Below are positions 3,647-61,677 of a DNA stretch of 64,000 nt, piece by piece (positions within the stretch are counted from its first letter, which is position 1; the number at the start of each line of letters is the position of its first letter). The position numbers were made by a program, and so were the translations under genes. Origin of the DNA: an uncultured Chloroflexia bacterium (lineage in GTDB: Bacteria > Chloroflexota > Limnocylindria > Limnocylindrales > CSP1-4); NCBI GenBank assembly GCA_963749705.1, contig CAVVNQ010000003.1, forward strand, positions 128,001 to 192,000, read 5' to 3'. Below the pieces are notes generated by a model. The model was not told the DNA's origin. It saw only the letters and a list, made by a program, of their open reading frames with translations, and did not search any database.

Positions 3647-3679
3647 CGTTCATGCGGCCCGACCACGCAGAGACCGACC

Positions 3680-6424
<2,745 letters not shown>

Positions 6425-6449
6425 CCGCGACGCGGAGCCGGACGGCCCG

Positions 6450-7097: not shown

Positions 7098-7103
7098 CGT
7101 CCG

Positions 7104-14963: not shown

Positions 14964-16167
14964 CGACACCGCCCTGGCCGGGCTGCGCCTGATCCGTGAC
15001 CCGCTCCCCGACCCGGAGTCGGTGGGGGAGGACGAGGAGCTGATCGCGCGCATCCGGGAGGAGATCGGGACCGCCGGCCCGATCACCGTTGCCCGGTTCA
15101 TGGAGCGCGCCCTGTACGAGCCGGATCACGGCTACTACCGTCGAGCCGCGGCCGGGCCGGGCCGGGCCGGGGACTTCCTCACCGCTCCCGAGACCCACCC
15201 GCTGTTCGGGGCGGCGGTGGGACGCCTGCTCGAACAGGCCTGGCAGGCACTGGGTCGTCCGGTGCCGTTCACCGTCACCGAGCCGGGCGCGGGCACGGGG
15301 ATGCTGGCGGCCGGGCTGCTGGGCGGGTTGCGGGACCTCGGGTCGCCGTTGTTCGAGGCGATCCGCTATCGCCCGGTCGAGGTGGAGCCCGAGCGCCTGG
15401 CCGCGCTGCGCACCCGGCTGATCGAAGATGGGCTGGCCGAGCGCCTGCACGCGGAGCCGCCCGGATCGAGCGGCGAGACGGGCGCCGTGGTCGCCAACGA
15501 GGTGCTGGACGCGCTGCCGGTCCACCGCGTGATCGGGCGCCAGGGGGCCCTGCGCGAGCTTCTCATCGACGTTCGGGACGGGGCGTTCGTCCAGGTGGAG
15601 GCCGAGCTGACGGATCCGCGACTCGCCACGCGGCTGGAGGCCGAGCAGGTCGCGATCGGCGAGGGCCAGGTCACCGAGGTATGCCTGGCCATCGAGCCCT
15701 GGCTCGCAGACGCGACGGCCCATCTCGCGCGGGGCATCGTCGTGCTCGTCGACTACGCGGCGGAGCCCGCCGAGCTCCACGGACCAGGCCGGCCTGCCGG
15801 GACCCTGCGGTCGTTCGCGCGCCACGCGGTCGGTGGCGATCCGTTGCGCCACGTCGGTCGCCAGGACCTGACGGCGACCGTGGACCTGGCGGCGGTGCGC
15901 ATGGCCGCGGCGGCCGCGGGCCTCGAGCCGGTGGGCGAGACGACGCAGGCGGAGCTGCTCGCGGCAGTGGGCTCCGGCGAGCTCGTCCAGGCGTTCCTTG
16001 CGCGACCCGGGGCGAGCCTCGGGGATGCCCTCGAGCTCCGTTCGGCGCTGGTGCGCCTCATGGATACGCGTGGCATGGGCGGCTTTCGCGTGCTCGCCTA
16101 CGGTCGCGGGCTGCCTCCCCGGGTCACGCTCCCGGGACTTGCCCGGATCGCCCGGCGCCCCGGGTAG
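14956..16167 (+). CDS. SAM-dependent methyltransferase, MidA/NDUFAF7 family
   Basis: GPITVARFMERALYEPDHGYY, GDFLTAPE, EPGAGTG, ANEVLDALP, QDLTATVD. Confidence 0.9.
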   Translation: MDDDTALAGLRLIRDPLPDPESVGEDEELIARIREEIGTAGPITVARFMERALYEPDHGYYRRAAAGPGRAGDFLTAPETHPLFGAAVGRLLEQAWQALGRPVPFTVTEPGAGTGMLAAGLLGGLRDLGSPLFEAIRYRPVEVEPERLAALRTRLIEDGLAERLHAEPPGSSGETGAVVANEVLDALPVHRVIGRQGALRELLIDVRDGAFVQVEAELTDPRLATRLEAEQVAIGEGQVTEVCLAIEPWLADATAHLARGIVVLVDYAAEPAELHGPGRPAGTLRSFARHAVGGDPLRHVGRQDLTATVDLAAVRMAAAAAGLEPVGETTQAELLAAVGSGELVQAFLARPGASLGDALELRSALVRLMDTRGMGGFRVLAYGRGLPPRVTLPGLARIARRPG

Positions 16168-16222: not shown

Positions 16223-16327
16223 GCTCGTGCCGTGCTTCGCATGCACCAGCGCGGCACGCCCAGCGCCACCACTTCGACCGGGTGCCGACAAACCCCCTCG
16301 TCGGACCCGCTCGACACCGAGGACCAC

Positions 16328-16684
16328 GTGACCGGGATCTGGTACGTCGTCGGGTTCGCCTTCGCCGGCGTCTCGTTCGTCTTCCTGACGATCGGGCTGG
16401 CGTGGCTGATCTCGCATCGATCGCGAGGTGACCGACACAAGGGCTATCCGTACGAGTCGGGCATCGACACGTACGGCGACACCCATGCCCGCTTCGGCAT
16501 CTCGTTCTACATCTATGCGCTGCTGTTCGTCGCGTTCGACATCGAGGTCGTGTTCATCTACCTGTGGGCGCTGGTCTTCCGGGACCTGCTGCTGGGCGGC
16601 TTCGTGAGCATGCTGATCTTCGTGGGGATCCTGCTCGTCGGGCTCGCGTACGCCTGGCGCAAGGGGGTGCTCACATGGCGATGA
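16328..16684 (+). CDS. nuoA: NADH-quinone oxidoreductase subunit A
   Basis: PYESGI, FYIYALLFVAFDIE, YAWRKGVLTW; GAGG RBS before GTG. Confidence 0.95.
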   Translation: MTGIWYVVGFAFAGVSFVFLTIGLAWLISHRSRGDRHKGYPYESGIDTYGDTHARFGISFYIYALLFVAFDIEVVFIYLWALVFRDLLLGGFVSMLIFVGILLVGLAYAWRKGVLTWR

Positions 16685-17436
16685 CCCCGCCCGGTCCGGA
16701 CGACCGGGAGCTCGGCGCCGGGCCGGACGGCGGAACCGAGACATCCGAGCCCACCGGCCAGCGTCCCTCATCGCTCGTCAGCGCCACGCCGCGCGACCTC
16801 ACCCAGCCGATCGTGGTGCCCAACACGTTGTGGACGTCGACCCGCCCCGAGGCGTACGGCGGCGGGCTGCCGACCGAGGACACGCACCTGCGCGAGCTGG
16901 TGGGATCGCCGCTCGTGACCAGGGACGATGCGCGCTGGGGCGCGCTCGACGTCATCCCCACGAAGGCCGACCTGATCCTGGACCTGATCCGGATGAACAG
17001 CCTGTGGCCGCTCCTGTCCGGGCTCGCGTGCTGCGCCTTCGAGATGATGTCGGCCGCGACGTCCAAGAACGACATGGACCGCTGGGGCATGTTCCCGTTC
17101 CGCGCCTCGCCCCGGCAGGCGGACGTGCTGATCGTTGCCGGGACCCTGACGACCAAGATGGCCGGCCCCCTGATCCGCCTGTGGGAGCAGATGCCGGAGC
17201 CCAAGTGGTGCGTGGCGATGGGCGACTGCACCTGCTCCGGTGGCCGCTACAAGCGCAGCTACTCGACCATCGAGGGGATCGACCGGGTGATGCCGGTCGA
17301 CGTCTACGTGCCCGGTTGCCCGCCCCGGCCGGAAGGCCTGATCTACGGGATGCTCAAGCTCGGGCAGCTGGTCAAGGAGCGCCGCGGGGAATGGCCGGAT
17401 CGCCCGATCGGACCCTCAGTTCCGGAGGACGTCTGA
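16681..17436 (+). CDS. nuoB: NADH-quinone oxidoreductase subunit B (N-terminally extended)
   Basis: GLACCAFEMM, RASPRQAD, MGDC, DVYVPGCPPRPE (N2 ligands); ATGA overlap with nuoA. Confidence 0.96.
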   Translation: MTPPGPDDRELGAGPDGGTETSEPTGQRPSSLVSATPRDLTQPIVVPNTLWTSTRPEAYGGGLPTEDTHLRELVGSPLVTRDDARWGALDVIPTKADLILDLIRMNSLWPLLSGLACCAFEMMSAATSKNDMDRWGMFPFRASPRQADVLIVAGTLTTKMAGPLIRLWEQMPEPKWCVAMGDCTCSGGRYKRSYSTIEGIDRVMPVDVYVPGCPPRPEGLIYGMLKLGQLVKERRGEWPDRPIGPSVPEDV

Positions 17437-17437
17437 C

Positions 17438-17986
17438 GTGGACCGGAGCCTCCGCAAGCGACTCGAGGCGCACTTTGGCGAGCGCCTGACGGGCCCGGTC
17501 CGCCAGCGCCACGACGAGACCGAGATCAGGATCCGCCCGGCCGACGTGACCCAGGTCATGCGAGACCTCCATGACGACCCGGCGTTCGGCTTCGAGATCC
17601 TCGCCGACCTCGCCGGCGTCGACACCGGAACGGACATGCAGGTCGTCTACCACCTGTGGTCGCCGCTCACGCCGGACTGGCTGCGGATCATCGCGGTCGG
17701 CATGCCGCGCGACGACCCGCGCGTCCCGTCCCTCACCGGCCTGTGGCCGGGCGCGGAGTGGATGGAGCGCGAGACGTACGACATGTTCGGGATCATCTTC
17801 GAGGGCAACCGGGACCTGCGGCGCATCTACATGCCACCCGACTACACGAGCTTTCCGCTGCGCAAGGACTTCTACCTTGCCGATGACGCGGCCCGGTCGC
17901 CCGGGGCCGGCGTCCGGCACATGGAGCAGACGCAGGTTCCCAACCAGGCGACGCCGTCGGTCGTCCGCCGGACCGTGAAGGCCTGA
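17438..17986 (+). CDS. nuoC: NADH-quinone oxidoreductase subunit C
   Basis: WPGAEWMERETYDMFGIIFEG, PLRKDF. Confidence 0.95.
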   Translation: MDRSLRKRLEAHFGERLTGPVRQRHDETEIRIRPADVTQVMRDLHDDPAFGFEILADLAGVDTGTDMQVVYHLWSPLTPDWLRIIAVGMPRDDPRVPSLTGLWPGAEWMERETYDMFGIIFEGNRDLRRIYMPPDYTSFPLRKDFYLADDAARSPGAGVRHMEQTQVPNQATPSVVRRTVKA

Positions 17987-17987
17987 C

Positions 17988-19226
17988 ATGACCGCCCCCA
18001 CCACCCCCCGCCAGCACCCGTCCGCGGACGATCCGCGGATCATGCTCGACGACCAGATCGGCGCGTTCGAGACCATTCCGCCGTACCCGCCGCGCACGGA
18101 ACGAGAATCCGAGTTCTTCGCGCTGGGCGACGGCGAGATGTTCCTCAACATGGGACCTCACCACCCGTCCACGCACGGCGTGCTCCGGGTCGTGCTCAAG
18201 ATCAACGGCGAGCAGGTCGTGGACCTGGACCCGGTCCTGGGGTACCTCCACCGCGGCGTCGAGAAGCTGTGCGAGAACTCGGACTACCACCACATCATCA
18301 GCCAGGTCGACCCGCTCGAGTACGTGAGCTCGCTGTTCTGCGAGTGGGCCCCGGTCATGTCGTTCGAGAAGCTCCTGGACGTCCAGGTTCCGCGCCGGGC
18401 CGAGTACATCCGGGTCCTCACCGGCGAGCTCCTGCGCATCTCCAGCCACGTCCTGTTCCAGGGGTTCATGGCCCTGGACCTGGGCGGCCTGACGCCGATC
18501 CTGTACGGCTTCATCGAGCGCGACGAGATCGTGGAGATGCTGGCCGCGGTCACGGGCCAGCGGATGCTGTTCAACTACTTCCGCATCGGCGGGGTCAACG
18601 GCGACCTCAACCACGAGTTCATGTCCCGGCTGGGTGACTGGATGAGCCGGGCGCTGACCCAGGCGGAGGCGAACGCCGGGCTGCTCAACGAGAACGAGAT
18701 CTTCGTCCGCCGGATGCGGGACATCGGCAGGCTCGACCGCGAGACGGCGCTGCGGATGGGCGTCACCGGCCCCAACCTGCGCGCCGCGGGCGTCGCCTAT
18801 GACCTCCGCCGGGCCCACCCGTACTCCGTCTACCCGGAGCTCGAGTTCGACATCCCGACACGTGGCGCCGAGCGCGGTGGCGACAGCCTCGACCGCTACC
18901 TGCTGCGCCTCGACGAGATCAAGCAGAGCCTGCGGATCATCGACCAGTGCCTCCACAACATGCCCGATGGACCGGTCATGGCCAAGCTGCCGCGGCTGCT
19001 GCGGCCGCGCCCGGGCCGGGCCTGGGCCGCGGTCGAGGCCCCCCGCGGCCTGTTCGGGACGTACGCGGTCTCGGATGGCACCGACCAGCCGTTCCGGCTC
19101 AAGATCCACGACCCCTCGTTCGTCAACCTCCAGCTGGTCCCGCTGCTCGTGAAGGGCAACCTGATCGCCGACACGATGGCCGTGATGTCCTCGCTGGATC
19201 CGATCATGGGCGGCGTCGACAAGTGA
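17988..19226 (+). CDS. nuoD: NADH-quinone oxidoreductase subunit D
   Basis: NMGPHHPSTHGVLR, GYLHRGVEK, EAPRG, DPIMGGVDK; no NiFe CxxC motifs. Confidence 0.96.
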   Translation: MTAPTTPRQHPSADDPRIMLDDQIGAFETIPPYPPRTERESEFFALGDGEMFLNMGPHHPSTHGVLRVVLKINGEQVVDLDPVLGYLHRGVEKLCENSDYHHIISQVDPLEYVSSLFCEWAPVMSFEKLLDVQVPRRAEYIRVLTGELLRISSHVLFQGFMALDLGGLTPILYGFIERDEIVEMLAAVTGQRMLFNYFRIGGVNGDLNHEFMSRLGDWMSRALTQAEANAGLLNENEIFVRRMRDIGRLDRETALRMGVTGPNLRAAGVAYDLRRAHPYSVYPELEFDIPTRGAERGGDSLDRYLLRLDEIKQSLRIIDQCLHNMPDGPVMAKLPRLLRPRPGRAWAAVEAPRGLFGTYAVSDGTDQPFRLKIHDPSFVNLQLVPLLVKGNLIADTMAVMSSLDPIMGGVDK

Positions 19227-20575
19227 CCACGCTCAACCGCGCCTGGGGCAACCTGACCGTGACCGGCAAGGTCCTGCTGCCGCTGCTGTTCCTGGTGCTG
19301 GTCGCGGGTCCGATCCTGATCGTGCTGATCGCCCAGTTCGTGGCGCCGTTCCTGGTGGACCTGCTGGGCGCGAACCTGGACATCGTCCGGTTCGTCGTCG
19401 CGGTCACGGGCGTGCTGGTGTTCAGCATCCCGACCGCGTTCATCATCATCTACATGGAGCTCAAGGTCATCGCCCGGATGAACCTGCGGATCGGGCCCAA
19501 CCGGATCGGGCCGGCCGGAGCCGCGATGTCCGTGGTGCACGGGCTCAAGGTCCTCATGAAGGAGGACTTCACGCCGACCGGCGCCGACCACCTGGTGTTC
19601 ACGATCGCACCGGTGATCGTGTTCCTGACCGCCGTCATGACCTTCCTGGTCATCCCGTTCGGGCCCGGGCTCGTCGGGCAGGACTTCAACATCGGCCTGC
19701 TGTACCTGTTCGCGGTCGGTGGCATGAGCGTCGTCGGCCTGCTGATCGCCGGCTGGGCGAGCACCAACAAGTACTCGCTGCTGGGCGGCCTCCGTGCGGC
19801 GGCACAGGTCGTGAGCTACGAGATCCCGCTCACGCTGTCCGTCGTCGGCCTCATCCTGCTGGCGGGCACGATGAGCCTCAACCAGATCGCGGGGCAGCAG
19901 GCGGGCTGGTTCACGGACTGGTTCGTGTTCCGCCAGCCGCTGGGGGCGCTGATCTTCTTCATCGCGGCCACCGCCGAGGCGAACCGAACCCCGTTCGACC
20001 TGTCCGAAGCGGACTCGGAGATCGTGGCCGGCTTCGCGACCGAGTACTCGGGGATGCGGTTCGGGTTCCTTTTCTTCGCCGAGTACGTCAACGTGTTCAT
20101 CATCTCGGCGCTGCTGGTGACCCTGTTCTTCGGCGCCTGGAACGCGCCGTTCCCGTTCCCGCAGGTCGAGGTCGCCCTCGATCCGGGCACGCTGGGGATC
20201 GGCCTGCTGATCCTGATCGCCGCGGCCCCGGTGGTGCTGACCCTGGTGTTCGCCGCGCCGATCTACCTCATGCGCAGCTCCACCCCCGCCTGGCAGGCGC
20301 TGGTGCTCGGCTTCGTGATGTTCAACGTGGTCGCCATCGGCGCCGTGTTCGGCATCGCGTATGCCGGGCTCGACTGGATGGCCGGCCTCGTGTGGTTCAT
20401 GGGCAAGTCGTACGTGTTCGTGTTCGTGTTCGTGTGGATGCGCGCCACGTTCCCGCGCGTGCGCATCGACCAGCTGATGGGGTTCGCCTGGAAGTGGCTG
20501 CTGCCCGCGGCGCTGCTCAACCTGTTCGTGACGGCCGCGGCGATCGTGGTCGTCGACACGCTGAAGGCCGGCTGA
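19223..20575 (+). CDS. nuoH: NADH-quinone oxidoreductase subunit H (enlarged, ~450 aa)
   Basis: RIGPNRIG, KYSLLGGLRAAAQVVSYE, AEANRTPFDLSEADSEIVAG, PRVRIDQLM; GTGA overlap with nuoD. Confidence 0.95.
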   Translation: MTTLNRAWGNLTVTGKVLLPLLFLVLVAGPILIVLIAQFVAPFLVDLLGANLDIVRFVVAVTGVLVFSIPTAFIIIYMELKVIARMNLRIGPNRIGPAGAAMSVVHGLKVLMKEDFTPTGADHLVFTIAPVIVFLTAVMTFLVIPFGPGLVGQDFNIGLLYLFAVGGMSVVGLLIAGWASTNKYSLLGGLRAAAQVVSYEIPLTLSVVGLILLAGTMSLNQIAGQQAGWFTDWFVFRQPLGALIFFIAATAEANRTPFDLSEADSEIVAGFATEYSGMRFGFLFFAEYVNVFIISALLVTLFFGAWNAPFPFPQVEVALDPGTLGIGLLILIAAAPVVLTLVFAAPIYLMRSSTPAWQALVLGFVMFNVVAIGAVFGIAYAGLDWMAGLVWFMGKSYVFVFVFVWMRATFPRVRIDQLMGFAWKWLLPAALLNLFVTAAAIVVVDTLKAG

Positions 20576-20579: not shown

Positions 20580-21245
20580 ATGAGCATGATCCCCGGCATG
20601 GGCCTGGTCCGCGGCATGAGCCTGACGCTGCGGCGGTTCTTCGCGCCCAAGGCGACCATCCAGTGGCCCGAGGTCCGCGCGGACGTCGCGCCCAAGTTCC
20701 GCGGCCGGCTGCAGCTCCTCTACGACGAGTACGGCACGCTCAAGTGCGAGACCTGCTTCCAGTGCGCCCAGGCCTGCCCGATCGAGTGCATCGACATGGG
20801 TGGCATCGACACCAAGGGCCGCTTCCACGTCCACTGGGGCGCACCCGAGACGTACGACGAGCGGCGCGAGGAATCGGCGATGCGACGCGCCGGGCGACCG
20901 GTTGCCGACGCCGCGTTCACCCGCTTCGAGGGGATCGACCTCGCCCCGCTCGACGCGATCCTCGAGGCGCACGACTACGACCCCAAGGACATGCTCGCGA
21001 TCCTCGAGGAGACACAGGCCGAGTACGGCTACCTGCCGGTCGCGTCGCTCAAGCACATCTCGCGGGTGACGGGCGCCTGGTACGCGATGATCTACGGCAC
21101 CGCGACGTACTACCGGCACCTGCGGTTCGAGCCGCCCGCGGTCGACGACGCGCCGGCGGCCGGCGAGGCGCACCTGGCCGCGGAGCAGGCCTACCGGTCG
21201 TCGCTCGGCGCCTCGCTGGGCTATGGCGACGGGGGCGCACGCTGA
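20580..21245 (+). CDS. Fusion of NuoI N-terminal half and NuoE-like N-terminal helical domain
   Basis: GMSLTLRRFF...TIQWPE...FRGR...CETCFQCAQACP (single ferredoxin motif), then MLAILEETQAEYGYLP...IYGTATYY; no NuoE [2Fe-2S] cysteines. Confidence 0.85.
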   Translation: MSMIPGMGLVRGMSLTLRRFFAPKATIQWPEVRADVAPKFRGRLQLLYDEYGTLKCETCFQCAQACPIECIDMGGIDTKGRFHVHWGAPETYDERREESAMRRAGRPVADAAFTRFEGIDLAPLDAILEAHDYDPKDMLAILEETQAEYGYLPVASLKHISRVTGAWYAMIYGTATYYRHLRFEPPAVDDAPAAGEAHLAAEQAYRSSLGASLGYGDGGAR

Positions 21246-22573
21246 TGGCCCCGTTCCTCACCACGCCGCCGGACTGGCCCCGGATCCTCACCGGTCGCGC
21301 GGACGCGATCTCGGCGGATCCGTCGGACCTCGACGCCGCGGTCGCCGCCGGCGCGTTCGACGGCCTGAGGGTCGCGGTTCGCGACCTGGGCGCCACGGGA
21401 ACGATCGCCACGATCGCCGCGTCCGGACTGCGCGGCCGCGGCGGCGGCGGCTTCCCCACCGCCCGCAAGTGGCGCGCGGCCGCCGGACGTCCCGTGGACC
21501 AGCGATACGTGGTGGCCAACGGCTACGGCGCGGACCCCGCGGTCCGGACCGACGCGACGCTGATGGCCGCCGATCCGTGGGCGGTCATCGAGGGCCTGGT
21601 CATCGCGGCCTTCGCCACCGGCGCGACCGAGGCCATCATCGCGGTCCGCGCCGAGGATGCCGCCCTGATCACGCTGCTCGAGGGCGCCGCCGCGGCGGCG
21701 GAGGAGGCCGGCTTCGCCGGCGATGACGTGCTCGGCTCCCGCCATCGCGTGGGGATCACGATCCGTCCCGTCCAGGGCGCGTACATGCTGGGCGAGGAGA
21801 CGGTGCTGCTCAAGGCGCTCGAGGGACGGCGCGGCCAGCCCGAGCAGCGACCGCCGTACCCCACCGAGCGGGGCCTGTTCGGCAAGCCGACGGTGGTCAA
21901 CAACATCCAGACGCTGGCCGCGGTCCCGTGGATCGTGAAGCAGGGCGGACCGGCGTACGCCGCGATCGGCAGCCCGGCGAGCCCGGGCACCATGCTGGTC
22001 CAGCTCCGCGGCCCCCAGGGGGCGGGCATCGCGGAGGTCCCGCTCGGGACGCCGTTGCGCGACCTGGTCGAGCTCGCCGGCGGGACCGGCAAGCACACCC
22101 TGAAGGCCGTCCTGGTCGGCGGCCCGACGGGCGGGCTGCTGCCACCCGGGATGCTCGACACGCCGTTCGAGTTCGACGCGCTGCGTGCCGCCGGCGCCCA
22201 CATCGGCTCCGGCTCGGTGGTCGTGGCCGACGAGCGCGCCTGCATCGTGGACCTCGCGCGTCTCCTGACCCGGTTCTCCGCCGACGAGGCGTGCGGCAAG
22301 TCGATCCCCTGCCGGATCGGCCTCCGCCGCCTGTACGAGATCGGCGAACGCGTCGCATCCGGGCGGCCGCTGCCGACCGACGCCACGCTCATCGAGGACC
22401 TCGCCCACGACGTGGCCGCCTCCGGCCTGTGCGACCACGAGCGCCTGGCGACCCTGCCGTTCACCAGCGGGATGCGATACTTCCGCTCCGAGATCGATGA
22501 CCACATTCTCCGCAGCTCCTGCCCCGCCGGCGTGTGTCAGCCGATCGCGGTGGCGGCGGGCGCCGCGCACTAG
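21245..22573 (+). CDS. nuoF: NuoF/HydB-like flavoprotein subunit (degenerate)
   Basis: SGLRGRGGGGFPT, GAYMLGEET, PPYP...GKPTVVNN, GGPTGG, CGKSIPCRIG, C-terminal HxxxxxCPAGVC. Confidence 0.85.
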   Translation: MAPFLTTPPDWPRILTGRADAISADPSDLDAAVAAGAFDGLRVAVRDLGATGTIATIAASGLRGRGGGGFPTARKWRAAAGRPVDQRYVVANGYGADPAVRTDATLMAADPWAVIEGLVIAAFATGATEAIIAVRAEDAALITLLEGAAAAAEEAGFAGDDVLGSRHRVGITIRPVQGAYMLGEETVLLKALEGRRGQPEQRPPYPTERGLFGKPTVVNNIQTLAAVPWIVKQGGPAYAAIGSPASPGTMLVQLRGPQGAGIAEVPLGTPLRDLVELAGGTGKHTLKAVLVGGPTGGLLPPGMLDTPFEFDALRAAGAHIGSGSVVVADERACIVDLARLLTRFSADEACGKSIPCRIGLRRLYEIGERVASGRPLPTDATLIEDLAHDVAASGLCDHERLATLPFTSGMRYFRSEIDDHILRSSCPAGVCQPIAVAAGAAH

Positions 22574-22584
22574 GACCCGAGCGA

Positions 22585-25233
22585 ATGGCCGACCTGATCA
22601 CGCGCCCCGACAGCCCCATCGAGCGGCGTGACGCCCGTCCCGATCAGCCCACGCTGCTGGACACCGTCACGGCCCGCGAGGACACGCTCGCCGAGCGCCT
22701 GATCACGACCCAGTCGCCGCAGCGGCCGCAGAGCACGCCGCGGATCCGGATCGAGGTCGATGGCCGGGTCGTCGAGGGGTTCGAGGGCCAGACGATCCTC
22801 GAGGTCTGCCGCGACAACGGGATCGAGATCCCGACCCTGTGCTACGAGCCCAAGCTGCCCGGCTTCGGCGCCTGCCGGATGTGCGTGGTCGAGGTCGAGG
22901 GCGAGGACACGCCGCCCATCTCCTGCTCGCGGGTCGCCGATGCGGGGATGGTGGTCCAGACGCAGACGGACGAGCTGCGGCGCCTGCGCAGGACCAACCT
23001 GGAGCTGATCTTCAGCGACCACAACGCCTACTGCCTGCCACCGTGCCAGAACAAGTGCCCCAGCCACATCGACATCCCGGGCTTCCTCAAGGCCAACGCC
23101 GAAGCCGACTGGCGCGAGTCCGCGCGGATCTTCAAGCGCACGATCCCCTTCCCGAGCGTGCTCGGCCGGGTGTGCCCGGCCCCGTGCGAGGAGCACTGCC
23201 GCCGCGACGAGGTGGACGAGGCGATCGCCATCCGCGACAGCCACCGGTACGCCGGCGACCAGGTGCTGCGGGCGATGCTCGACGAGGACGTCGATCCGCC
23301 GATCCCGTTCGAGCGCCAGGCGCCGTCCGGTCGCCGGGCCGCGGTCATCGGGTCCGGGCCGGCGGGCATGAGCGCCGCCTACTACCTCCTGCTCAACGGC
23401 CACGACGTCACCGTGTTCGAGCGCGATCCCGCGCCGGGCGGCATGCTGCGGTACGGGATCCCGCAGTACCGGCTGCCCAAGGTGGAGGTCCTCGAGGCCG
23501 AGTACGAGTCCGTGTGGCGGCTGGGCGGCAAGCTCGAGTGCAACCAGGCACTGGGCCGCGACTTCACGCTCGACGACCTCCAGAACCAGGGCTACGACGC
23601 GGTCGTCGTCGCGATCGGCTGCTACAACACCAACAAGCTGGGCATCCCCAACGAGGACGCCGACGGCGTCATCGACGGACTGGAGTATCTCCGCACCGCC
23701 ACGCTCGGGCTGCCCTACCCGGGGCATGCCGGGACCCGGGTGGTGGTCATCGGCGGCGGCTTCACGTCGATGGACTGCAGCCGCACCTCGATCCGCCAGG
23801 GCGCCAGCGACGTGACCCTGGTGTACCGCCGCGACATGAAGGACATGCCGGCGTCGGGCGAGGTCCACGAGGCGATCGAGGAAGGCGTCACGGCGATCTT
23901 CCAGGCCGGCCCGACGCGCGTGATCACGGATGACAAGACGGGCAAGGTCACCGGGGTCGAGTTCATCCGGATGGCGCTGGGCGAGCCCGATGCGTCCGGC
24001 CGGCGGCGCCCGGAGCCCGCACCGGGCACCGAGTTCACGGTCCCCTGCGATCGCGTCCTGCTCGCGATCGGGCAGGGTCCGGAGCTGGACTGGATCGGAC
24101 CCGGGTCCGAGGGACCGGTCGCGACGCGACAGCATCGGCTGGCCTCGGATGCGGTGACCTTCGAGACCGCGCGCCCGGGCGTGTTCGGCACCGGCGACGT
24201 GCGGATCGGCGCGGCGACGGTCGTCCAGGCGATCGCGGAGGGCCGCCGCGCGGCGTACGCCGTGGACGCCTACCTCAAGGGCCAGGACCTCGCCGCGATC
24301 CGCACCCGCCAGACCCTCGCCGAGCCGCAGCCCGAGTTCCTCTCGATCGTGCCGTTCACGGGCGAGGTCAAGGAGCCGCGCTACCGCCTCAAGGCGCTCG
24401 AGGCCGAGGCGCGCAACGACAGCTACGTCGAGTACGAGATCCCGTACACCCGGGACGAGGCGGTCGCGGAGTCGACGCGCTGCCTCCAGTGCACCTGCGA
24501 GGCGATCGGGTTCTGCGACCTGCGTCGGCTGGGCATCGAGTACGGGACGACGCTCAGGACGCTCGAGCCCGCGTTCCACCAGGGCGCCGGCTACCGGAGC
24601 GTGACCGAGAACCGGTTCACCGGGCGCAACCACGACTACGTCCGCGACGACAGCCACGCGTTCATCCTGCGCGAGCCCGCCCGGTGCATCGACTGCGGCC
24701 GATGCGCCAACGTGTGCGCCGAGGTCGTCGGTGCCGCGTGCTACGACTTCATGCGGATCGGCTTCGACACACTGGTCACGACGCCGCTCGACATGAGCCT
24801 CAACGACACGCCCTGCGTGTCCTGCGGCCGGTGCGCCGAGACGTGCCCGACCGGAGCCCTGATGCCCAAGCCACGGGTGCTCCAGAAGTACGAGGTCGAC
24901 GAGAGCCGCTGCATCCTGTGCGGGATCTGCGTCGACGCCTGCCCCTACGATGCCGTGCGCGACAGCGACCAGTTCGAGCTCAGCCACACGTCGCGCGTGG
25001 AGCCGATGATCGACCTCCTCGCGCTGGCCGCGGTCGAGCGCGAGACCGAGATGAGCTATATCCGCCGCGAGCGTGACTGGGCGGAGCGAGCCCGGGCCGA
25101 GGGCCGTGTCCTCGACTCGTCCCGGCTGCTCCCCGTCCTGCCCGCCTCGTTTGCGAGCGGCAATGGAAACGGGAACGGCCACGGAAGCGGACCTGCGTCC
25201 GCGTCCGCGACGGCCCATGCCCACGATCACTGA
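22585..25233 (+). CDS. Multidomain Fe-S flavoprotein: NuoG-like [2Fe-2S] + GltD-type FAD/NAD(P)H domain + 2x[4Fe-4S] + NuoI C-terminal half
   Basis: IPTLC...GACRMC...SC; PCQNKCP...GRVCPAPCEEHC; GSGPAG, GGMLRYGIPQYRLP, GGGFTSMD, YRR; CIDCGRCANVC, CVSCGRCAETCP; YEVDESRCILCGICVDACP...FELS. Confidence 0.88.
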   Translation: MADLITRPDSPIERRDARPDQPTLLDTVTAREDTLAERLITTQSPQRPQSTPRIRIEVDGRVVEGFEGQTILEVCRDNGIEIPTLCYEPKLPGFGACRMCVVEVEGEDTPPISCSRVADAGMVVQTQTDELRRLRRTNLELIFSDHNAYCLPPCQNKCPSHIDIPGFLKANAEADWRESARIFKRTIPFPSVLGRVCPAPCEEHCRRDEVDEAIAIRDSHRYAGDQVLRAMLDEDVDPPIPFERQAPSGRRAAVIGSGPAGMSAAYYLLLNGHDVTVFERDPAPGGMLRYGIPQYRLPKVEVLEAEYESVWRLGGKLECNQALGRDFTLDDLQNQGYDAVVVAIGCYNTNKLGIPNEDADGVIDGLEYLRTATLGLPYPGHAGTRVVVIGGGFTSMDCSRTSIRQGASDVTLVYRRDMKDMPASGEVHEAIEEGVTAIFQAGPTRVITDDKTGKVTGVEFIRMALGEPDASGRRRPEPAPGTEFTVPCDRVLLAIGQGPELDWIGPGSEGPVATRQHRLASDAVTFETARPGVFGTGDVRIGAATVVQAIAEGRRAAYAVDAYLKGQDLAAIRTRQTLAEPQPEFLSIVPFTGEVKEPRYRLKALEAEARNDSYVEYEIPYTRDEAVAESTRCLQCTCEAIGFCDLRRLGIEYGTTLRTLEPAFHQGAGYRSVTENRFTGRNHDYVRDDSHAFILREPARCIDCGRCANVCAEVVGAACYDFMRIGFDTLVTTPLDMSLNDTPCVSCGRCAETCPTGALMPKPRVLQKYEVDESRCILCGICVDACPYDAVRDSDQFELSHTSRVEPMIDLLALAAVERETEMSYIRRERDWAERARAEGRVLDSSRLLPVLPASFASGNGNGNGHGSGPASASATAHAHDH

Positions 25234-25242: not shown

Positions 25243-25779
25243 GTGACGCTGCCGGATACGATCCCGCTGATCGGGATCGGGTGGGATGACCTGCTGTTCC
25301 TGGCCCTGGCCGGGGTGATGGTCGGTGCCGCGCTGCTGGTCGTCACGATGCGCGACATCATCCGCTGCGGCCTGGCCATGATCGTGTGCTTCGGCGCCCT
25401 GGCGGGGCTGTACGTGCTTGCCGGGGCCCCGTTCGTCGCCGCCGCGCAGGTGCTGGTGTACATCGGCGCGATCAGCGTCCTGGTCCTGTTCGCGATCATG
25501 CTCACGCAGACGAAGGCGGGCCCGAGGGCGCTGGTGTTCCAGACGCAGGCGGTCCCCGCGGCGATCGCGGCGGTGATCCTCGCGATCCTGATCGCGGTCA
25601 CGGTCACGGCGACCGACTGGCCCCAGTCGGCGGGACGGATCTGGACGCGAACCGCCGACGTCGCGGCGACCCTGTTCTCCTCGTTCGTGCTCCCGTTCGA
25701 GGTGGTGAGCGTGCTGCTGCTCGCGGCCGTGATCGGCGGGGTGTTCATCGCCAAGCGGGAGCGGGGAGGGCCTGACTGA
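25243..25779 (+). CDS. nuoJ: NADH-quinone oxidoreductase subunit J
   Basis: AAQVLVYIGAISVLVLFAIML, LPFEVVSVLLLAAVIG. Confidence 0.95.
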   Translation: MTLPDTIPLIGIGWDDLLFLALAGVMVGAALLVVTMRDIIRCGLAMIVCFGALAGLYVLAGAPFVAAAQVLVYIGAISVLVLFAIMLTQTKAGPRALVFQTQAVPAAIAAVILAILIAVTVTATDWPQSAGRIWTRTADVAATLFSSFVLPFEVVSVLLLAAVIGGVFIAKRERGGPD

Positions 25780-26111
25780 TGCTGGCCGCCCTGCACAACC
25801 TGTCCCAGACCCTGGATGCGTATCTCGTGCTCGCGGGGCTGCTGTTCGCGATCGGTGCGTTCGGCTTCCTGGCCCGGCGCAACGCGATCAGCATGCTGAT
25901 GTCGATCGAGCTGATGCTCAACGGCGTCAACCTCGCGATCATCGCGTTCGGCGCGTTCAGCCCCTCGCTCAAGACCAGCGCCTCGGTGATCGCGCTGATC
26001 GTGATGGCCGCCGCCGCCGCCGAGGCGACCGTCGGCCTCGCCATCGTGATCGCGATCTACCGCAACCGGAAGACGCCGCTCGTCGACGAGTACGACGACA
26101 TGCGGCAGTAG
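25779..26111 (+). CDS. nuoK: NADH-quinone oxidoreductase subunit K
   Basis: RRNAISMLMSIELMLN, AAAEATVGLAI. Confidence 0.96.
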   Translation: MLAALHNLSQTLDAYLVLAGLLFAIGAFGFLARRNAISMLMSIELMLNGVNLAIIAFGAFSPSLKTSASVIALIVMAAAAAEATVGLAIVIAIYRNRKTPLVDEYDDMRQ

Positions 26112-26121: not shown

Positions 26122-28110
26122 ATGTACGAGACCCTGATCCCGCTGATCGTGCTGCTGCCGATCGCCGGCTTCGCGTTCACGGCGCTGTTCGGTCGCCGGC
26201 TCCAGCTCACATTCGGACGCTGGGCGTCGGAGATCGTGCCGGTGGGCGGCGTGATCGCGGTGTGGGTGATCGCGATGATCGTGGTCGCCGGGGCGCTCGG
26301 CCACAACGAGGCGTTCGGCGAGCACGGCCTCGACGTCAAGCTCTGGACGTGGATCCCGGCCGGGGCGTTCAGCGTGGACCTCGGCTTCCACGTGGACACG
26401 CTGACGGCCGCGCTGCTGATCGTGGTCACCACGATCGGCATGCTCGTCCACGTGTACTCGATCGGGTACATGGCGCACGACGACGGGACGTGGCGCTTCT
26501 TCGCCTACCTCAACCTGTTCATGTTCTCGATGCTGCTGCTGGTGCTCGCCAACAGCTGGCTGCTGGTGTTCGCGGGCTGGGAGCTGGTCGGGCTGTGCAG
26601 CTACCTGCTGATCGGCTTCTGGTACCGCAAGCGCTCGGCATCGCTGGCGGCCAAGAAGGCGTTCATCGTCAACCGCGTGGGCGACGTCGGGTTCGCGCTG
26701 GGGATCATGGCGATCTTCGTCAACACCGGCACGCTCAACATCCAGGACTCGCTGGCGAAGCTGATCGAGGCGCCGGCCGGGACGCTGACGATCCCGCTCT
26801 CGATCATCGCCCTGCTCGTGTTCGCGGGCGCGATGGGGAAGAGCGCGCAGTTCCCGCTCCACGTGTGGCTCCCGGACGCGATGGAAGGTCCGACCCCCGT
26901 CTCGGCCCTGATCCACGCGGCGACCATGGTCAACGCCGGCGTCTACCTCATCGCCCGCGCCAACCCGCTGTTCGCCCACGCCCAGGACGCGATGGTGGTG
27001 GTGGCCGCGATCGGCATCTTCACGGCGATCCTGGCCGCCTCGATCGCGTTCACCCAGACCGACATCAAGCGCGTGCTCGCGTACTCCACGCTGAGCCAGC
27101 TGGGGTACATGTTCGCGGCCCTCGGCGTCGGCGCGTTCGTGCCCGCGATCTTCCACCTGATGACCCACGGGTTCTTCAAGGGCCTGCTGTTCCTCGGTTC
27201 GGGCTCGGTGATCCACGCCGTCCACGAGGAGCAGGACATGAACCGCATGGGCGCCCTGTGGCGGAAGATCCCGATCACGCACTGGACGATGTTCGTGGCC
27301 ACGTTCGCCATCGCGGGCATCCCGCCGCTGGCCGGGTTCTTCTCCAAGGACGAGATCCTGGGCGAGTCGTTCAAGTTCGGCTTCACCTGGGTGTGGCTGA
27401 TCGGCGTCGTCGTCGCGGTCATGACGGCGTTCTACATGTGGCGCCTGATGGGCAAGACGTTCTACGGCGAGAGCCGCGTCGACCCGCACGTCGAGCCCAA
27501 AATCCACGAGTCCGCGTGGCAGATGACGCTGCCCCTGGTCCTGCTCGCGATCCCGGCCGCGCTGCTGGGCATTGCGCTGACGTGGGGCGGGCCGCCGCTG
27601 TTCTCCGGCACGGGCCTGCTGGCCGGCTGGCTGGAGCCCGTGTTCGCCGACTCGGAGCACCTGCTCCACGGCAACCCGGAGGCGTTCGCGCTGGCGGGCG
27701 TCGACGGGATCCTGATCCTGATCAGCGTGGCCGCGGCCACGCTCGGCCTGGTCGCCGGCCTGTGGCTGTTCGGTGCCTTCCGCGCCCGTGGCAACCGCGA
27801 GCTGGTGGACCGGATCGCCGGCGCCAACGGCGCCACGCGGTTCCTGTATCGGGCCACCCTCAACAAGTGGTGGTTCGACGAGCTCAACGACCTGCTGTTC
27901 ATCCGGATCGGCGGGCGGGTGGCGGCGGCCATGTGGTGGTTCGACCGGACGATCGTCGATGGCACAGTCAACGGCGTCGGCGCGCTCACGCGTGACGCGG
28001 GCGGGGGCCTGCGCCGGATCCAGACCGGACACGTCCAGAACTACGCGCTGGGGATCGCGATCGGCCTGCTCGTGATGGCAGGCTCGTTCCTCGTGATCGT
28101 GAGCCGCTGA
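26122..28110 (+). CDS. nuoL: NADH-quinone oxidoreductase subunit L
   Basis: GKSAQFPLHVWLPDAMEGPTPVSALIHAATMV, HGFFKGLLFLGSG, QTGHVQNY. Confidence 0.97.
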   Translation: MYETLIPLIVLLPIAGFAFTALFGRRLQLTFGRWASEIVPVGGVIAVWVIAMIVVAGALGHNEAFGEHGLDVKLWTWIPAGAFSVDLGFHVDTLTAALLIVVTTIGMLVHVYSIGYMAHDDGTWRFFAYLNLFMFSMLLLVLANSWLLVFAGWELVGLCSYLLIGFWYRKRSASLAAKKAFIVNRVGDVGFALGIMAIFVNTGTLNIQDSLAKLIEAPAGTLTIPLSIIALLVFAGAMGKSAQFPLHVWLPDAMEGPTPVSALIHAATMVNAGVYLIARANPLFAHAQDAMVVVAAIGIFTAILAASIAFTQTDIKRVLAYSTLSQLGYMFAALGVGAFVPAIFHLMTHGFFKGLLFLGSGSVIHAVHEEQDMNRMGALWRKIPITHWTMFVATFAIAGIPPLAGFFSKDEILGESFKFGFTWVWLIGVVVAVMTAFYMWRLMGKTFYGESRVDPHVEPKIHESAWQMTLPLVLLAIPAALLGIALTWGGPPLFSGTGLLAGWLEPVFADSEHLLHGNPEAFALAGVDGILILISVAAATLGLVAGLWLFGAFRARGNRELVDRIAGANGATRFLYRATLNKWWFDELNDLLFIRIGGRVAAAMWWFDRTIVDGTVNGVGALTRDAGGGLRRIQTGHVQNYALGIAIGLLVMAGSFLVIVSR

Positions 28111-29645
28111 TGAACGTCTCGGACTTCCCGATCGTCTCGCTGATCACGTTCCTGCCCCTCGCCGGCGCGATCGTGGTCGCGTTCCTGCCGGGCAGCCGCC
28201 CGAACCTCGCCCGGTACACCGCCCTCGGGTTCGCGCTGGCCGCGTGGGTCGCCTCGCTGATCCTCCTGGTCGGCTTCACGCCCGGGCGTCCCGGGTTCGA
28301 GTACATCGACCAGCAGGCGTGGGTGCCCCTGTTCGGGATCCAGTACAAGGTGGGCGTCGACGGGCTGTCGCTGGCGATGGTCGTGCTGACGACGACGCTG
28401 ACCTGGATCAGCATCCTTGCCTCGTTCCGGCCGATCCAGAACCGGGTCAAGGAGTACATGGTCTCGTTCCTGGTCCTCGAGGTCGGCATGACCGGGGTGT
28501 TCGTGTCGCTCGACCTGTTCCTGTTCTACGTGTTCTGGGAGATCGTCCTCGTCCCGATGTACCTGATCATCGGGATCTGGGGCGGCGCGAACCGGATCTA
28601 CGCGACGATCAAGTTCGTCCTGTACACGCTGGTCGGCTCGCTGCTGATGCTGGTCGCGATCCTGGCGACCGCGTTCACGTACCAGGCCGCGACGGGCAGC
28701 TGGGCCGGGGCGTTCGACCTCACCGTGCTGCGCGGCTTCCCGTTCGACTCGACGTTCCAGATGCTCGCGTTCGGTGCGTTCTTCCTCGCGTTCGCGATCA
28801 AGGTCCCGATGTTCCCGTTCCACACCTGGCTGCCCGACGCGCACGTCGAGGCGCCGACCGCCGGGTCGGTGATCCTGGCCGGCGTCCTGCTCAAGTTGGG
28901 CGGCTACGGGTTCATCCGGTTCGCGCTGCCGTTGTATCCGGATGCGGCCCAGACCTTTGCCCCCGCGATCATCGTGCTCAGCCTGATCGCGATCATCTAC
29001 GGCGCCATCGTGGCGCTGGTCCAGCCCGACCTCAAGAAGCTGGTCGCCTACTCCTCGGTCAGCCACATGGGCTTCGTGACCCTCGGCATCTTCGTGTTCC
29101 AGCAGCAGGCGCTCCAGGGCGCGATCCTCCAGATGGTCAACCACGGGCTGATCACCGGGGCCCTGTTCCTGCTGGTGGGCGTGATCTACGAACGGACCCA
29201 CGACCGCACGATCGCCAAGATGGGCGGCCTCGGCGCGCCGGTACCCGTCTATGCGGCCGCGTTCGGGTTCTTCGTGTTCGCGTCAGTCGGGCTGCCGGGC
29301 CTGTCGGGCTTCGTCGGGGAGTTCCTGACCCTGGTCGGGACGTTCTCCGTGTACCCGGTGGCAGCCGCCGTGGCGACGTTCGTGATGATCCTGGCCGCCG
29401 GCTACCTGCTGTGGATGGTCCAGCGGGTGGCGTTCGGCGAGCTGTCCGAGTTCCTCAAAGGTCTGGGCGACCACCTGACCGACATGAAGCCGGTGGAGGC
29501 GCTGACCCTCGTGCCGCTGGGCGCACTGGTCGTCGTGTTCGGGCTGTTCCCCGGGCTGGTCCTGGATCTTGTGTCCGGGTCGGTGACCTCGACGCTCAAC
29601 GCCGTGGCGCAGGGCGCGCCGATCGCGTTCGGGCTGTGGCGGTAG
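28110..29645 (+). CDS. nuoM: NADH-quinone oxidoreductase subunit M
   Basis: KVPMFPFHTWLPDAHVEAPTAGSVILAGVLLK, AYSSVSHMG. Confidence 0.97.
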   Translation: MNVSDFPIVSLITFLPLAGAIVVAFLPGSRPNLARYTALGFALAAWVASLILLVGFTPGRPGFEYIDQQAWVPLFGIQYKVGVDGLSLAMVVLTTTLTWISILASFRPIQNRVKEYMVSFLVLEVGMTGVFVSLDLFLFYVFWEIVLVPMYLIIGIWGGANRIYATIKFVLYTLVGSLLMLVAILATAFTYQAATGSWAGAFDLTVLRGFPFDSTFQMLAFGAFFLAFAIKVPMFPFHTWLPDAHVEAPTAGSVILAGVLLKLGGYGFIRFALPLYPDAAQTFAPAIIVLSLIAIIYGAIVALVQPDLKKLVAYSSVSHMGFVTLGIFVFQQQALQGAILQMVNHGLITGALFLLVGVIYERTHDRTIAKMGGLGAPVPVYAAAFGFFVFASVGLPGLSGFVGEFLTLVGTFSVYPVAAAVATFVMILAAGYLLWMVQRVAFGELSEFLKGLGDHLTDMKPVEALTLVPLGALVVVFGLFPGLVLDLVSGSVTSTLNAVAQGAPIAFGLWR

Positions 29646-49088: not shown

Positions 49089-49115
49089 GGGGAGCCTCCT
49101 ACACAAGCGTTGAAG

Positions 49116-50612: not shown

Positions 50613-50664
50613 CCCGCTCGCCGACCGGGTGGCCGGCAGCCGCGCGGCGAGCCGGCTCCGTGCC

Positions 50665-61371: not shown

Positions 61372-61549
61372 TCCTGCGATCGTGATCCTGGCTGCAAGAG
61401 GGGCTTCGATGGGTAACGCCGACCGCGGAGACCTGGTCAAGGAAGGGTCGCCGCACAACCGCGCAACAATCCTGCCGGAGCCGCTGGACTGCAGTGCAGG
61501 CTTCCCCTCGGGAGGTGACCCGCGGCGTCCCGGCGCCTGAGGCTCGGGA

Positions 61550-61579
61550 ACAATACACCGGTCTGCGGGGCCGTCGCAA
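61550..61579 (-). promoter_or_regulatory. Putative dnaA promoter
   Basis: TTGCGA-N18-TATTGT on the minus strand. Confidence 0.5.
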
Positions 61580-61677
61580 GGCGAATCCGGGATACTCCCC
61601 TGGGGTATCGTGCGGGATGCCCCGGGGGTGGTCCGTGCGGGCGCCGCGGCCGGGTCGTCCGGGCCGGGGTCGGGCGT

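Follow-up and report, generated by a model that had tools for sequence, protein, structure and literature searches.

A putatively split NuoI and an Nfn/Stn-like electron-input module in the complex I operon of Limnocylindria (Chloroflexota)

Three genes between nuoH and nuoJ

The subject of this analysis is the complex I (nuo) operon on a 64-kb stretch of DNA (contig CAVVNQ010000003.1 of assembly GCA_963749705.1, positions 128,001 to 192,000; hereafter the window) from a soil Chloroflexota bacterium, the assembly of which comprises 22 contigs and is 88% complete. The window has a G+C content of about 70%. On its plus strand the genes follow each other in the order nuoA, B, C, D, H, g1, g2, g3, nuoJ, K, L, M, N (Table 1), and all ten nuo genes (A, B, C, D, H, J, K, L, M and N) were identified with NCBIfam models within this single operon. 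The host has one respiratory complex I only, with a single NuoD locus in the genome. In NuoB the cysteines C119, C120, C185 and C215, which we take to be the ligands of cluster N2, are invariant in 30/30 sequences. Between nuoH and nuoJ lie the three genes g1, g2 and g3, and an intact nuoI is lacking there. This arrangement, put forward in the initial annotation, is borne out by the open reading frames (ORFs) and by profile searches, and the coordinates proposed for the three genes were exactly reproduced by ORF analysis.

Table 1. Features of the nuo locus in the window, with coordinates, strand and basis of the assignment (FAD, flavin adenine dinucleotide; FMN, flavin mononucleotide; AF2, AlphaFold2 model; pLDDT, predicted local distance difference test)
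Feature	Coordinates	Strand	Basis and remarks
MidA/NDUFAF7-like methyltransferase (PF02636), candidate accessory/assembly factor	14872..16167	+	Pfam E 3.5e-46; linkage held in two differing gene orders
nuoA	16241..16684	+	NCBIfam NuoA; start uncertain (16232, 16241 or 16328)
nuoB	16675..17436	+	TIGR01957 208 bits, above cut-off
nuoC	17438..17986	+	NCBIfam NuoC
nuoD	17988..19226	+	NCBIfam; sole NuoD of the genome
nuoH	19223..20575	+	NCBIfam; start probably GTG 19223, overlapping the nuoD stop
g1	20580..21245	+	221 residues
g1 residues 1-85, putative NuoI N-half	20580..20834	+	Amphipathic helix, TIQWPE, FRGR, one Cys motif; NuoI models match with their N-half only
g1 residues 120-190, helical N-domain of a NuoE/NfnC/StnA-like protein	20937..21149	+	PF01257 2-63/145; PDB 9bov_C 18-88
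g2, NuoF/NfnB-core flavoprotein	21245..22573	+	442 residues; ATG overlaps the g1 TGA; PF01512, PF10589; FMN loop, GEET, N3/B1 motif
g3, NfnA/StnC-like protein with putative NuoI C-half	22585..25233	+	882 residues; PDB 9bov_A E 9.5e-160, 9n5u_A, 8oh5_C; PRK12814 551.5 bits
g3 residues 53-128, N1b/A1-type 2Fe-2S domain (C86, C97, C100, C114)	22741..22968	+	PF13510; Cys invariant
g3 residues 146-570, GltD/NfnB-type domain with two 4Fe-4S sites	23020..24294	+	PF14691, PF07992; invariant columns; AF2 pLDDT 80-96
g3 residues 633-759, N5-position Cys cluster and NuoG/HydA-type ferredoxin domain	24481..24861	+	PF22117 at 694-759; collinear with Nqo3 119-271
g3 residues 762-820, putative NuoI C-half	24868..25044	+	TIGR01971 about 71-115; second halves of PDB NuoI/TYKY chains, E about 1e-10
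nuoJ	25243..25779	+	NCBIfam
nuoK	25779..26111	+	NCBIfam
nuoL	26122..28110	+	NCBIfam
nuoM	28110..29645	+	NCBIfam
nuoN	29656..31119	+	NCBIfam

Complementary NuoI-like pieces in g1 and g3

The protein encoded by g1 begins like NuoI. It contains a single CxxCxxCxxxCP motif (C56-x2-C59-x2-C62-x3-C66-P67, at 20745-20780), the four cysteines and the proline of which are invariant in 29/29 homologues. Of the NuoI models only the N-terminal half is matched, by residues 8-82 (NF004536 positions 12-87 of 180, TIGR01971 positions 1-65 of 121), and the solved TYKY/NuoI chains align to residues 9-73, well past the cysteine motif. Further downstream the NuoE-fold family PF01257 is matched with only the first 63 of its 145 positions (g1 residues 125-186), and comparison with PDB structures places this C-terminal part nearest to NfnC and StnA. 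The matches to NF004536, TIGR01971 and PF01257 thus agree with the earlier description of g1 as a NuoI-like start with one cysteine motif, followed by a NuoE-type helical domain. No cysteine follows C70 in g1, and the thioredoxin-like 2Fe-2S domain of NuoE (N1a/C1) is therefore missing. In the AF2 model of g1 (mean pLDDT 64) the NuoE-like domain reaches about 97, and residues 39-115 stay below 50.

Across the alignment of g1 homologues (alignment A1, columns 230-300) the thioredoxin-like domain decays in steps: CxCxxC plus one later cysteine is found in some genera of the family of the window (f1), three cysteines are left in the families f2 and f4, and the domain is deleted in the genus of the window and a few others. 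In the source annotations g1 goes only by the names 'ferredoxin', 'hypothetical protein' or 'NAD(P)H-dependent oxidoreductase subunit E'. A g1-g2 fusion, suggested by open frames of about 700 residues in relatives, was rejected on account of the differing frames and the stop after g1 in 10/10 loci.

The third cysteine motif of g3 (YEVDESRC776-x2-C779-x2-C782-x3-C786-P787 ... FELS, motif at 24910-24945) supplies the part of NuoI that g1 does not have. Residues 764-807 cover positions 71-114 of the 121 positions of TIGR01971 and lie directly past the ferredoxin domain at 694-759; the cysteines and the proline of the motif are invariant in 28/28 homologues. The suggestion that g3 ends with the missing NuoI half, as an orphan third motif behind an already paired 2x[4Fe-4S] domain, fits the positions of both TIGR01971 and PF22117. 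A remnant of the N7/A5 (molybdopterin-type) site was also considered, for the motif occupies that position in the alignments of Nqo3, FdsA and NfnA. It was rejected in view of the present form of the motif, which is CxxCxxCxxxCP with NuoI-like flanks and no fourth cysteine following; an N7/A5-type domain did not occur among 25 of the 29 Pfam families listed for g3.

At the protein level TIGR01971 gives 47 bits for g1 (positions 1-65) and 45 bits for g3 (positions 71-114), so that the two pieces, extending to about position 115 in g3, are complementary when aligned to the NuoI models. A six-frame search of the whole host genome (22 contigs) with TIGR01971 returned 16 matches. The two best are the g1 piece (47.5 bits, at 20613-20810) and the g3 piece (42.4 bits); the third-best reaches 29.7 bits and none attains the cut-off of 113.05. 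No intact nuoI was thus found in this genome, where an intact copy elsewhere would have spoken against a split. Among 121 genomes of the class an intact NuoI above the cut-off (E<=1e-15) was seen in three only, with 0/44 in f1 and 0/5 in f2, and the remaining 16 matches at E<=1e-15 are N-terminal halves of the g1 type. As an internal control, the matches of the g1 type and of the g3 type abut in one NuoI ORF in 5/5 loci with a canonical nuo operon from the same phylum.

A trimmed Nfn/Stn-like module

The larger part of g3 has the layout of NfnA and StnC, namely a 2Fe-2S domain, an inserted GltD-type FAD/NADPH domain and a NuoG-type iron-sulfur region, as is evident from the Pfam matches and from the alignment of residues 54-786 with 9bov_A. 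The GltD-type domain contains the FAD motif GxGxxG (256-261), the nucleotide motif GGG (390-392) and Y414-R415-R416; the YRR presumably has a role in NADPH binding. Further downstream follow C633/636/638/644 at the N5 position, motif A (C701-C711) and motif B (C744-C754-P). All cysteine sets of g3 (2Fe-2S, the two GltD-type sites, C633/636/638/644 and the motifs A, B and 3) are invariant in 28/28 homologues, and the same holds for GxGxxG, GGG, Y414 and R416. The score of g3 against PRK12814 is 551.5 bits with a cut-off of 916, and the FdhF-like C-terminal domain is missing. The AF2 model has a mean pLDDT of 61; the GltD domain is confident and residues 620-827 are below 50.

In g2 the FMN loop RGxGGxG and GEE(T/S) are conserved across the homologues. 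The NuoF model TIGR01959 gives 324.1 bits, below its cut-off of 558.65, and the full set of four N3 cysteines is not present. The protein scores 334-345 bits against NfnB, HydB and StnB, versus 215-251 bits against NuoF of solved complex I. These alignments extend over the cores only (NfnB residues 126-537, StnB 113-527), so that g2 is without the N- and C-terminal domains of these proteins; Pfam detects no Fer4 domain in g2, and the BfuB-type C-terminal B3/B4 and N-terminal B5 domains are absent. Residues C333, H420, C426 and C431 are at least 90% conserved, align with cysteines and the histidine of NfnB, and resemble the 3Cys-1His B2 zinc site by sequence only.

Conservation and gene order

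A protein of the g1 type that spans both domains was found in 40/41 relatives and in 192/201 genomes of the class (f1 59/60, f2 7/7, f4 65/66 and f3 59/66); the latter tally includes 8 unpublished genomes (G131, G122, G190, G156, G126, G102, G183 and G145). None of the loci analysed stems from these or from the likewise unpublished G362, G387, G474, G266 and G435, which entered into tallies only. In their sources the carrier genomes are named Chloroflexota, 'Candidatus Limnocylindrales' or Limnocylindria. Gene order was surveyed by mapping the proteins of the window on each of 29 loci. Throughout the class Limnocylindria no examined locus is without the unit g1-g2-g3, and g2 is retained in 29/29 loci. 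The order nuoABCDH-g1-g2-g3-JKLMN is found in f1 (11/11, that is, 10 loci and the window), in f2 (1/1) and, with an insert of 1.4-5 kb before nuoJ, in f4 (6/6). In f20 (1/1) the order is nuoABCDH-g1-g2-g3 and in f3 (4/4) it is nuoB-nuoD-g1-g2-g3; in the f3 genome G087 nuoA-C-H-J-K-L-M-N is sited elsewhere, and NuoB, NuoD, NuoH and NuoK occur once each. The families f10, f25, f29 and f47 (7/7) have a stand-alone cassette, nuoB-g1-g2-g3.

The stand-alone cassettes belong to Ktedonobacterales wherever the genome is named, and their flanking genes are unrelated. Three genomes of this type also carry a nuoA-C-D-H operon from which precisely nuoB and nuoI are missing (3/3 fetched); the same three have a second nuoK at a third site and a separate canonical nuoA-N operon of 14 genes with an intact NuoI. 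That g1, g2 and g3 are genuine subunits of complex I is most strongly supported by this partition: the putative halves always occur together with nuoB, and complement operons that are without nuoB and nuoI. The stand-alone operon suggests a peripheral-arm unit that is encoded apart from the membrane-arm genes. Direct observations are the gene content and the motifs, the lack of an intact NuoI, and a complementary partition of the genes that is conserved.

In the tree of NuoD the four canonical proteins form one clade (support 97/90), and the NuoD proteins linked to the split type fall in two clades outside it, one of f1, f2 and f4 (99/100) and one of f3, f20 and the Ktedonobacterales type (99/98). 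The tree indicates that the arrangement is old and does not result from a recent insertion into a canonical operon. The initial annotation had pictured a cassette inserted in nuoI; the module is indeed conserved between the relatives, but instead of a local insertion it appears as an old arrangement, widespread in Chloroflexota. Misassembly, which had been named as a possible objection, was not seen, as the same order recurs in independent genomes, single-contig ones included. In addition, contigs from other public sequencing runs bridge all four junctions (nuoH/g1, g1/g2, g2/g3 and g3/nuoJ), two of them from an RNA library. These contigs are short, no run contained half of the sampled words, and the contigs bear on the junctions only; uncovered bins (about 21518-22213) carry no meaning. 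The retention of g1-g2-g3 in every locus and the separate operons of the Ktedonobacterales type likewise argue against an assembly error.

A single-pattern search derived from alignment A1 returned at least 600 stretches, at least 493 of them relatives; the best 80 are all close relatives with 66-89% identity, and the view that this search gives stays within the phylum. A search of representative sequences gave 75 clusters at E<=1e-30, many of them fragments, which indicates no more than a rough family size.

Several loci have peculiarities of their own. The f4 insert between g3 and nuoJ (L060:11129-12375; also in L042 and L061-L064) measures 1.4-5 kb, and in L060 it holds an ORF of 134 residues and one of 281 residues with an HxHxDH motif that is metallo-beta-lactamase-like by eye. 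In G259 (locus L046, 51% G+C) two tandem copies of g3 (3422-5827 and 6065-8470) follow nuoB-g1-g2, and their last 230 residues are identical. Genes in pieces over more than one frame were encountered for g3 in L062 (2 pieces), g1 in L056 (2 pieces), and nuoD and g2 in L160, with 5 pieces for the nuoD of the canonical operon of G110. They reflect either assembly errors that cause frameshifts or genes in decay. G110 belongs to the three genomes, out of 121 searched in the class, that have an intact NuoI. Finally, L103 and L145, labelled as Acidobacteriota (Sulfomarinibacteraceae and Polarisedimenticolia), encode a g1 that is 71-73% identical to that of the window, and are probably mis-binned Limnocylindrales contigs.

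Proposed mechanism

Taken together, the data suggest that g1, g2 and g3 are subunits of complex I, that NuoI is split in the loop between its two cysteine motifs, and that the three genes derive from a transhydrogenase of the Nfn-Bfu/Stn type which was stripped of the parts needed for ferredoxin bifurcation and rebuilt. We estimate the probability of the explanation as a whole at roughly 0.72. Within it we infer how the clusters pair, which path the electrons take, what the substrates are and in which direction the enzyme operates, as follows.

In ferredoxin folds with 2x[4Fe-4S], each cluster is held by three cysteines from one motif and one from the other. In the ferredoxin domain of the Nqo3/HydA type it is the CP-cysteine of motif B that completes the cluster of motif A, as in the Thermus structure. 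Motifs A and B of g3 are collinear with the ferredoxin domain of Nqo3, HydA and NfnA (2fug_3 119-271; 9bov_A 584-699). If they pair with each other in the same way, the third motif of g3 and the motif of g1 remain as partners, and clusters N6a and N6b built across g1 and g3 would be the only pairing consistent with homology. N6a and N6b would then each take three cysteines from one polypeptide and one from the other, and these shared clusters would lock the input module onto NuoB and NuoD. The NuoE/NfnC-like helical domain of g1 may serve to anchor the flavoprotein g2.

Hydride is expected to enter at the FAD of g3 (from NADPH) and probably also at the FMN of g2 (from NADH). Electrons would run down the cluster chain of g3 and through the A/B ferredoxin domain, which in Nfn is a dead-end branch, to N6a and N6b, and from there by way of N2 in NuoB to quinone, driving the proton pump of NuoH and NuoJ-N. 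Going by the cysteine sets, g3 alone would hold one 2Fe-2S and five 4Fe-4S clusters, in addition to two clusters shared by g1 and g3, N3/B1 and N2. The enzyme is, as judged from its genes, most likely a proton-pumping NAD(P)H:quinone oxidoreductase. The fully specified version, in which Limnocylindria (and Ktedonobacterales-like Chloroflexota, as a second enzyme) possess a proton-pumping complex I that directly oxidises NADPH through a GltD-type FAD, besides or instead of NADH, with N6a and N6b at the interface of two fusion proteins, has in our opinion an even chance of being correct.

Alternative explanations

A number of observations weigh against this interpretation. Both NuoI pieces as well as g2 and g3 fail to reach the curated cut-offs of the models concerned (NuoI, NuoF, NuoG and PRK12814). 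The host genome is 88% complete, and every carrier seen is an uncultured metagenome-assembled genome (MAG); the bridging contigs from the RNA library may stem from DNA carry-over, and the monophyly of all split-linked NuoD proteins has a support of just 55/9. In g2 the second cysteine of the N3/B1 motif (CGKCxPC) is replaced by Ser353 (window 22301-22303). Ser, Thr or Ala is found at this position in 14/28 homologues, all in f1, f2 and f4, which comprises all f2 and f4 sequences and most of the aligned f1 sequences; the motif is intact in f3 and in every stand-alone cassette. With this cysteine replaced, the link from the FMN to the chain may be altered or lost in precisely the lineage of the window. 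Candidate occupants of such a three-cysteine site are a 4Fe-4S cluster with three cysteine ligands, a 3Fe-4S cluster, or nothing. Finally, BLASTP aligns g3 residues 744-826 to residues 52-155 of canonical NuoI over both motifs (E 6e-13 to 8e-9), which makes the sequence by itself compatible with a pairing of motif B with motif 3.

In such a pairing the motifs B and 3 of g3 would form a complete NuoI-like domain with two clusters, and NuoI would have been relocated rather than shared, leaving the g1 motif to pair with motif A of g3 or to hold one cluster or none. The spacing of 32 residues between B and 3 resembles that of small ferredoxins, and polyferredoxins align across the two motifs. Against this stand the collinearity of A and B with the ferredoxin domain of Nqo3, HydA and NfnA (PF22117 at 694-759) and the better fit of the NuoI model to motif 3 and its flanks (42.4 bits) than to A and B (22.9 bits); moreover, the whole NuoI-like N-terminus of g1, with its invariant motif, would be left without a role. 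We therefore consider a relocated NuoI improbable. Structure prediction is mute on the pairing, given the pLDDT below 50 for g3 residues 620-827, and a prediction of g1 1-100 together with g3 690-830 and four 4Fe-4S clusters scored 0.29 and 0.25 (mark 0.32, run without controls), which was counted neither way. The substitution in g2, in turn, would agree with an enzyme that is an NADPH:quinone oxidoreductase only, working through the GltD-type FAD, with the FMN/NADH site regulatory, cut off or vestigial in the lineage of the window. The loss or degeneration of the NuoE 2Fe-2S domain and the invariant motifs of the GltD domain are in line with this option, but the RGxGGxG loop and GEE(T/S) are conserved, g2 is retained in every locus surveyed, and three cysteines are still able to hold a cluster. 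An NADPH-only enzyme is thus unlikely, although it deserves some weight; NADH entry may be weakened in the lineage of the window.

The enzyme could also operate in reverse, with proton motive force and quinol driving the formation of NADPH or NADH, or could mainly equilibrate NADH and NADPH over the shared iron-sulfur chain. Both nucleotide sites would be situated on one cluster chain, the presumed ancestor is a transhydrogenase, and reverse electron flow through complex I for the supply of NADPH has been proposed in other bacteria, according to the accessible part of PMC4758237. We regard this as quite unlikely, since the enzyme is the sole complex I in nearly all genomes of the class that were searched, which fits a forward, respiratory role. 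Two further explanations are effectively excluded by the comparative data. One holds that g1-g3 constitute a soluble Nfn/Stn-like enzyme that merely resides in the nuo operon, with generic ferredoxin motifs taken for pieces of NuoI and a complex I that does without this subunit. The module is indeed homologous to soluble enzymes and generic ferredoxins also match the third motif; yet g1 matches the NuoI-specific N-terminus (residues 8-55) far past a cysteine motif, the halves are complementary, and the module is always accompanied by nuoB, with partner operons (nuoA-C-D-H or nuoA-C-H-J-N) from which exactly nuoB and nuoI are absent. A complex I without N6a and N6b, moreover, cannot pass electrons to N2, and the probability of a merely soluble enzyme is very low. 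An assembly or binning artefact at the junctions, for which only the nature of the host genome as a MAG in 22 contigs could be put forward, is negligible in view of the recurrence of the gene order in independent, partly single-contig genomes and of the bridging contigs mentioned above.

Other features of the window and the host genome

A methyltransferase of the MidA/NDUFAF7 type accompanies the operon in different positions. Homologues lie upstream of nuoA in the window, in 7/10 f1 loci (L049, L051-L054, L056 and L059) and in the f2 locus (L070), and directly downstream of g3 in 4/4 f3 loci (L043 and L065-L067); none was found in the fetched stretches of f4 or of the stand-alone cassettes. 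Mitochondrial NDUFAF7 methylates the NuoD homologue, and by analogy the MidA/NDUFAF7-like protein may be a bacterial maturation factor of complex I.

Directly after nuoN follow otsA/otsB-like trehalose genes (31234-33878). The window further contains an ORF of 2499 residues on the minus strand (43674-51173), with protein O-mannosyltransferase domains only near the C-terminus, and dnaA on the minus strand at 60007-61722, which points to a replication origin nearby. No tRNA and no Rfam match were found across the 64-kb window. Outside the nuo operons the host genome has two further NuoF-like genes: one encodes a NuoE-NuoF fusion of 750 residues that is followed by a NuoG-like gene (G000:C3:565847-569362, L011), and the other, of 604 residues, adjoins ApbE (G000:C8:249321-252806, L013).

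Implications

Complex I has 14 conserved core subunits, among them NuoI (TYKY), which is regarded as the fixed connector of the input and quinone modules. A NuoI that is split throughout a lineage and fused to a different input module would show how complex I swaps its electron-input head, and would represent a concrete intermediate for the modular evolution of the complex from an 11-subunit enzyme and soluble oxidoreductases. It would also enable the cell to conserve energy when electrons pass from NADPH to the quinone pool, a route that is not available with ordinary complex I. If the proposed interpretation is true, this is a natural case of a core subunit of complex I that was split and serves to dock an exchangeable input module covalently. 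The carriers make up a whole class of Chloroflexota that is known here only from MAGs, and automated reconstructions consequently probably mis-score them.

Comparison with known systems

The statements on published systems below refer to the accessible parts of the papers cited. The split NuoI, a NuoI-NuoE fusion and a GltD-bearing NuoG in complex I were not found described in the open full-text literature, in agreement with the initial annotation, which knew of no such architecture; this holds for articles without their supplements, and gene orders of a related kind might be contained in the clade tables of PMC9304861 and in supplementary fig. S2 of PMC4758237. Of many Chloroflexi it has been remarked that NuoG alone seems to be missing (Spero et al. 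2015, PMC4453560).

The input module itself has its closest counterparts in the Nfn-Bfu/Stn enzymes (Caldicellulosiruptor NfnABC, 9BOV/9BP5; Sporomusa StnABC, 8OH5; archaeal NfnABC, 9N5U), with which it shares the order of E-like, F-like and G-like genes. The likeness extends to the 2Fe-2S domain, GltD insertion and NuoG-type iron-sulfur layout of g3 (NfnA, E 9.5e-160), to the core of g2 with a 3Cys-1His set that may correspond to the B2 zinc site, and to the helical domain of g1, which aligns to NfnC. The three-gene oxidoreductase cassette of the initial annotation accordingly stands as to its number of genes, but the PDB matches indicate a trimmed NADH/NADPH module of the Nfn-Bfu/Stn type rather than a generic one. 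The known enzymes are soluble and bifurcate to ferredoxin, whereas the genes of the window sit in a nuo operon. Compared with them, the window is without C1, the B3/B4 domain, the N-terminal domain of NfnB and the FdhF-like domain of NfnA; it has NuoI-like halves fused at both ends, and it is the putative C-half of NuoI that replaces the FdhF-like end of NfnA.

In NfnABC of Caldicellulosiruptor (Csac) the path was described as FAD-A7-A6-A3-A2-A1-[B1-FMN-C1]-B3/B4, with A4/A5 as a dead-end branch and B1-FMN-C1 as the minimal bifurcating site, for which C1 is needed (Li et al. 2025, PMC11829005). Deletion of the 2Fe-2S cluster of StnA abolished the reduction of ferredoxin and left the oxidation of NADPH intact (Kumar et al. 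2023, PMC10482914). The flavobicluster B1-FMN-C1 is incomplete in the module described here, as g1 of the window has no C1 domain, the C1 ligands have degenerated in f2 and f4, and B1 is short of one cysteine. Since the domains that bear C1, B3/B4 and B5 are absent, the module is not a bifurcating Bfu enzyme in the sense of PMC11829005 and PMC10482914. By its sequence it looks like a Bfu-type enzyme that was rebuilt to deliver electrons to NuoI.

With canonical 14-subunit complex I (Nuo/Nqo, including the operons L155-L157 and L161 of the same phylum) the enzyme shares the membrane arm, the genes of the quinone module and the N2 ligands; in both, NuoI is fed by an N-module made up of E-, F- and G-like subunits. 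In the canonical complex, however, NuoI is one polypeptide, the genes for NuoEFG lie between nuoD and nuoH, NuoE carries N1a, and NuoG has a molybdopterin-like domain and, unlike g3, no GltD/NADPH domain. The NuoD of the split type falls outside the canonical NuoD clade.

Among published ideas the predicted 'Nuo-Bfu' comes closest (Schut et al. 2022, PMC9304861): in it NuoEFG is likewise swapped for a Bfu-type module in the middle of a nuo cluster. That system, reported from Deferribacteres, Proteobacteria, Planctomycetes and Nitrospirae, differs in that its NuoI is ordinary and its bifurcating BfuBC core complete, and is predicted to use NADH and ferredoxin. Its set of BfuB proteins required a C-terminal ferredoxin domain, which g2 is without, and the account in PMC9304861, supplements aside, mentions neither a GltD domain nor a split NuoI. 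Mbx-like operons of Thermotoga and proteobacteria (Degli Esposti 2015, PMC4758237) have a GltD-type NAD(P)H flavoprotein at the position of NuoI. There NuoI is replaced in a Mbx/Mrp-like complex that is thought to reduce NADP+, and neither a NuoF-like subunit nor a split NuoI is present. The 11-subunit complex I-like enzymes (NDH-1 etc.), which are without an N-module, finally, have the gene set nuoABCDHIJKLMN in common with the operon described here, but possess an intact NuoI and receive their electrons from a separate donor. It is plausible that the ancestor of the split type was such an 11-subunit enzyme that gained an input module.

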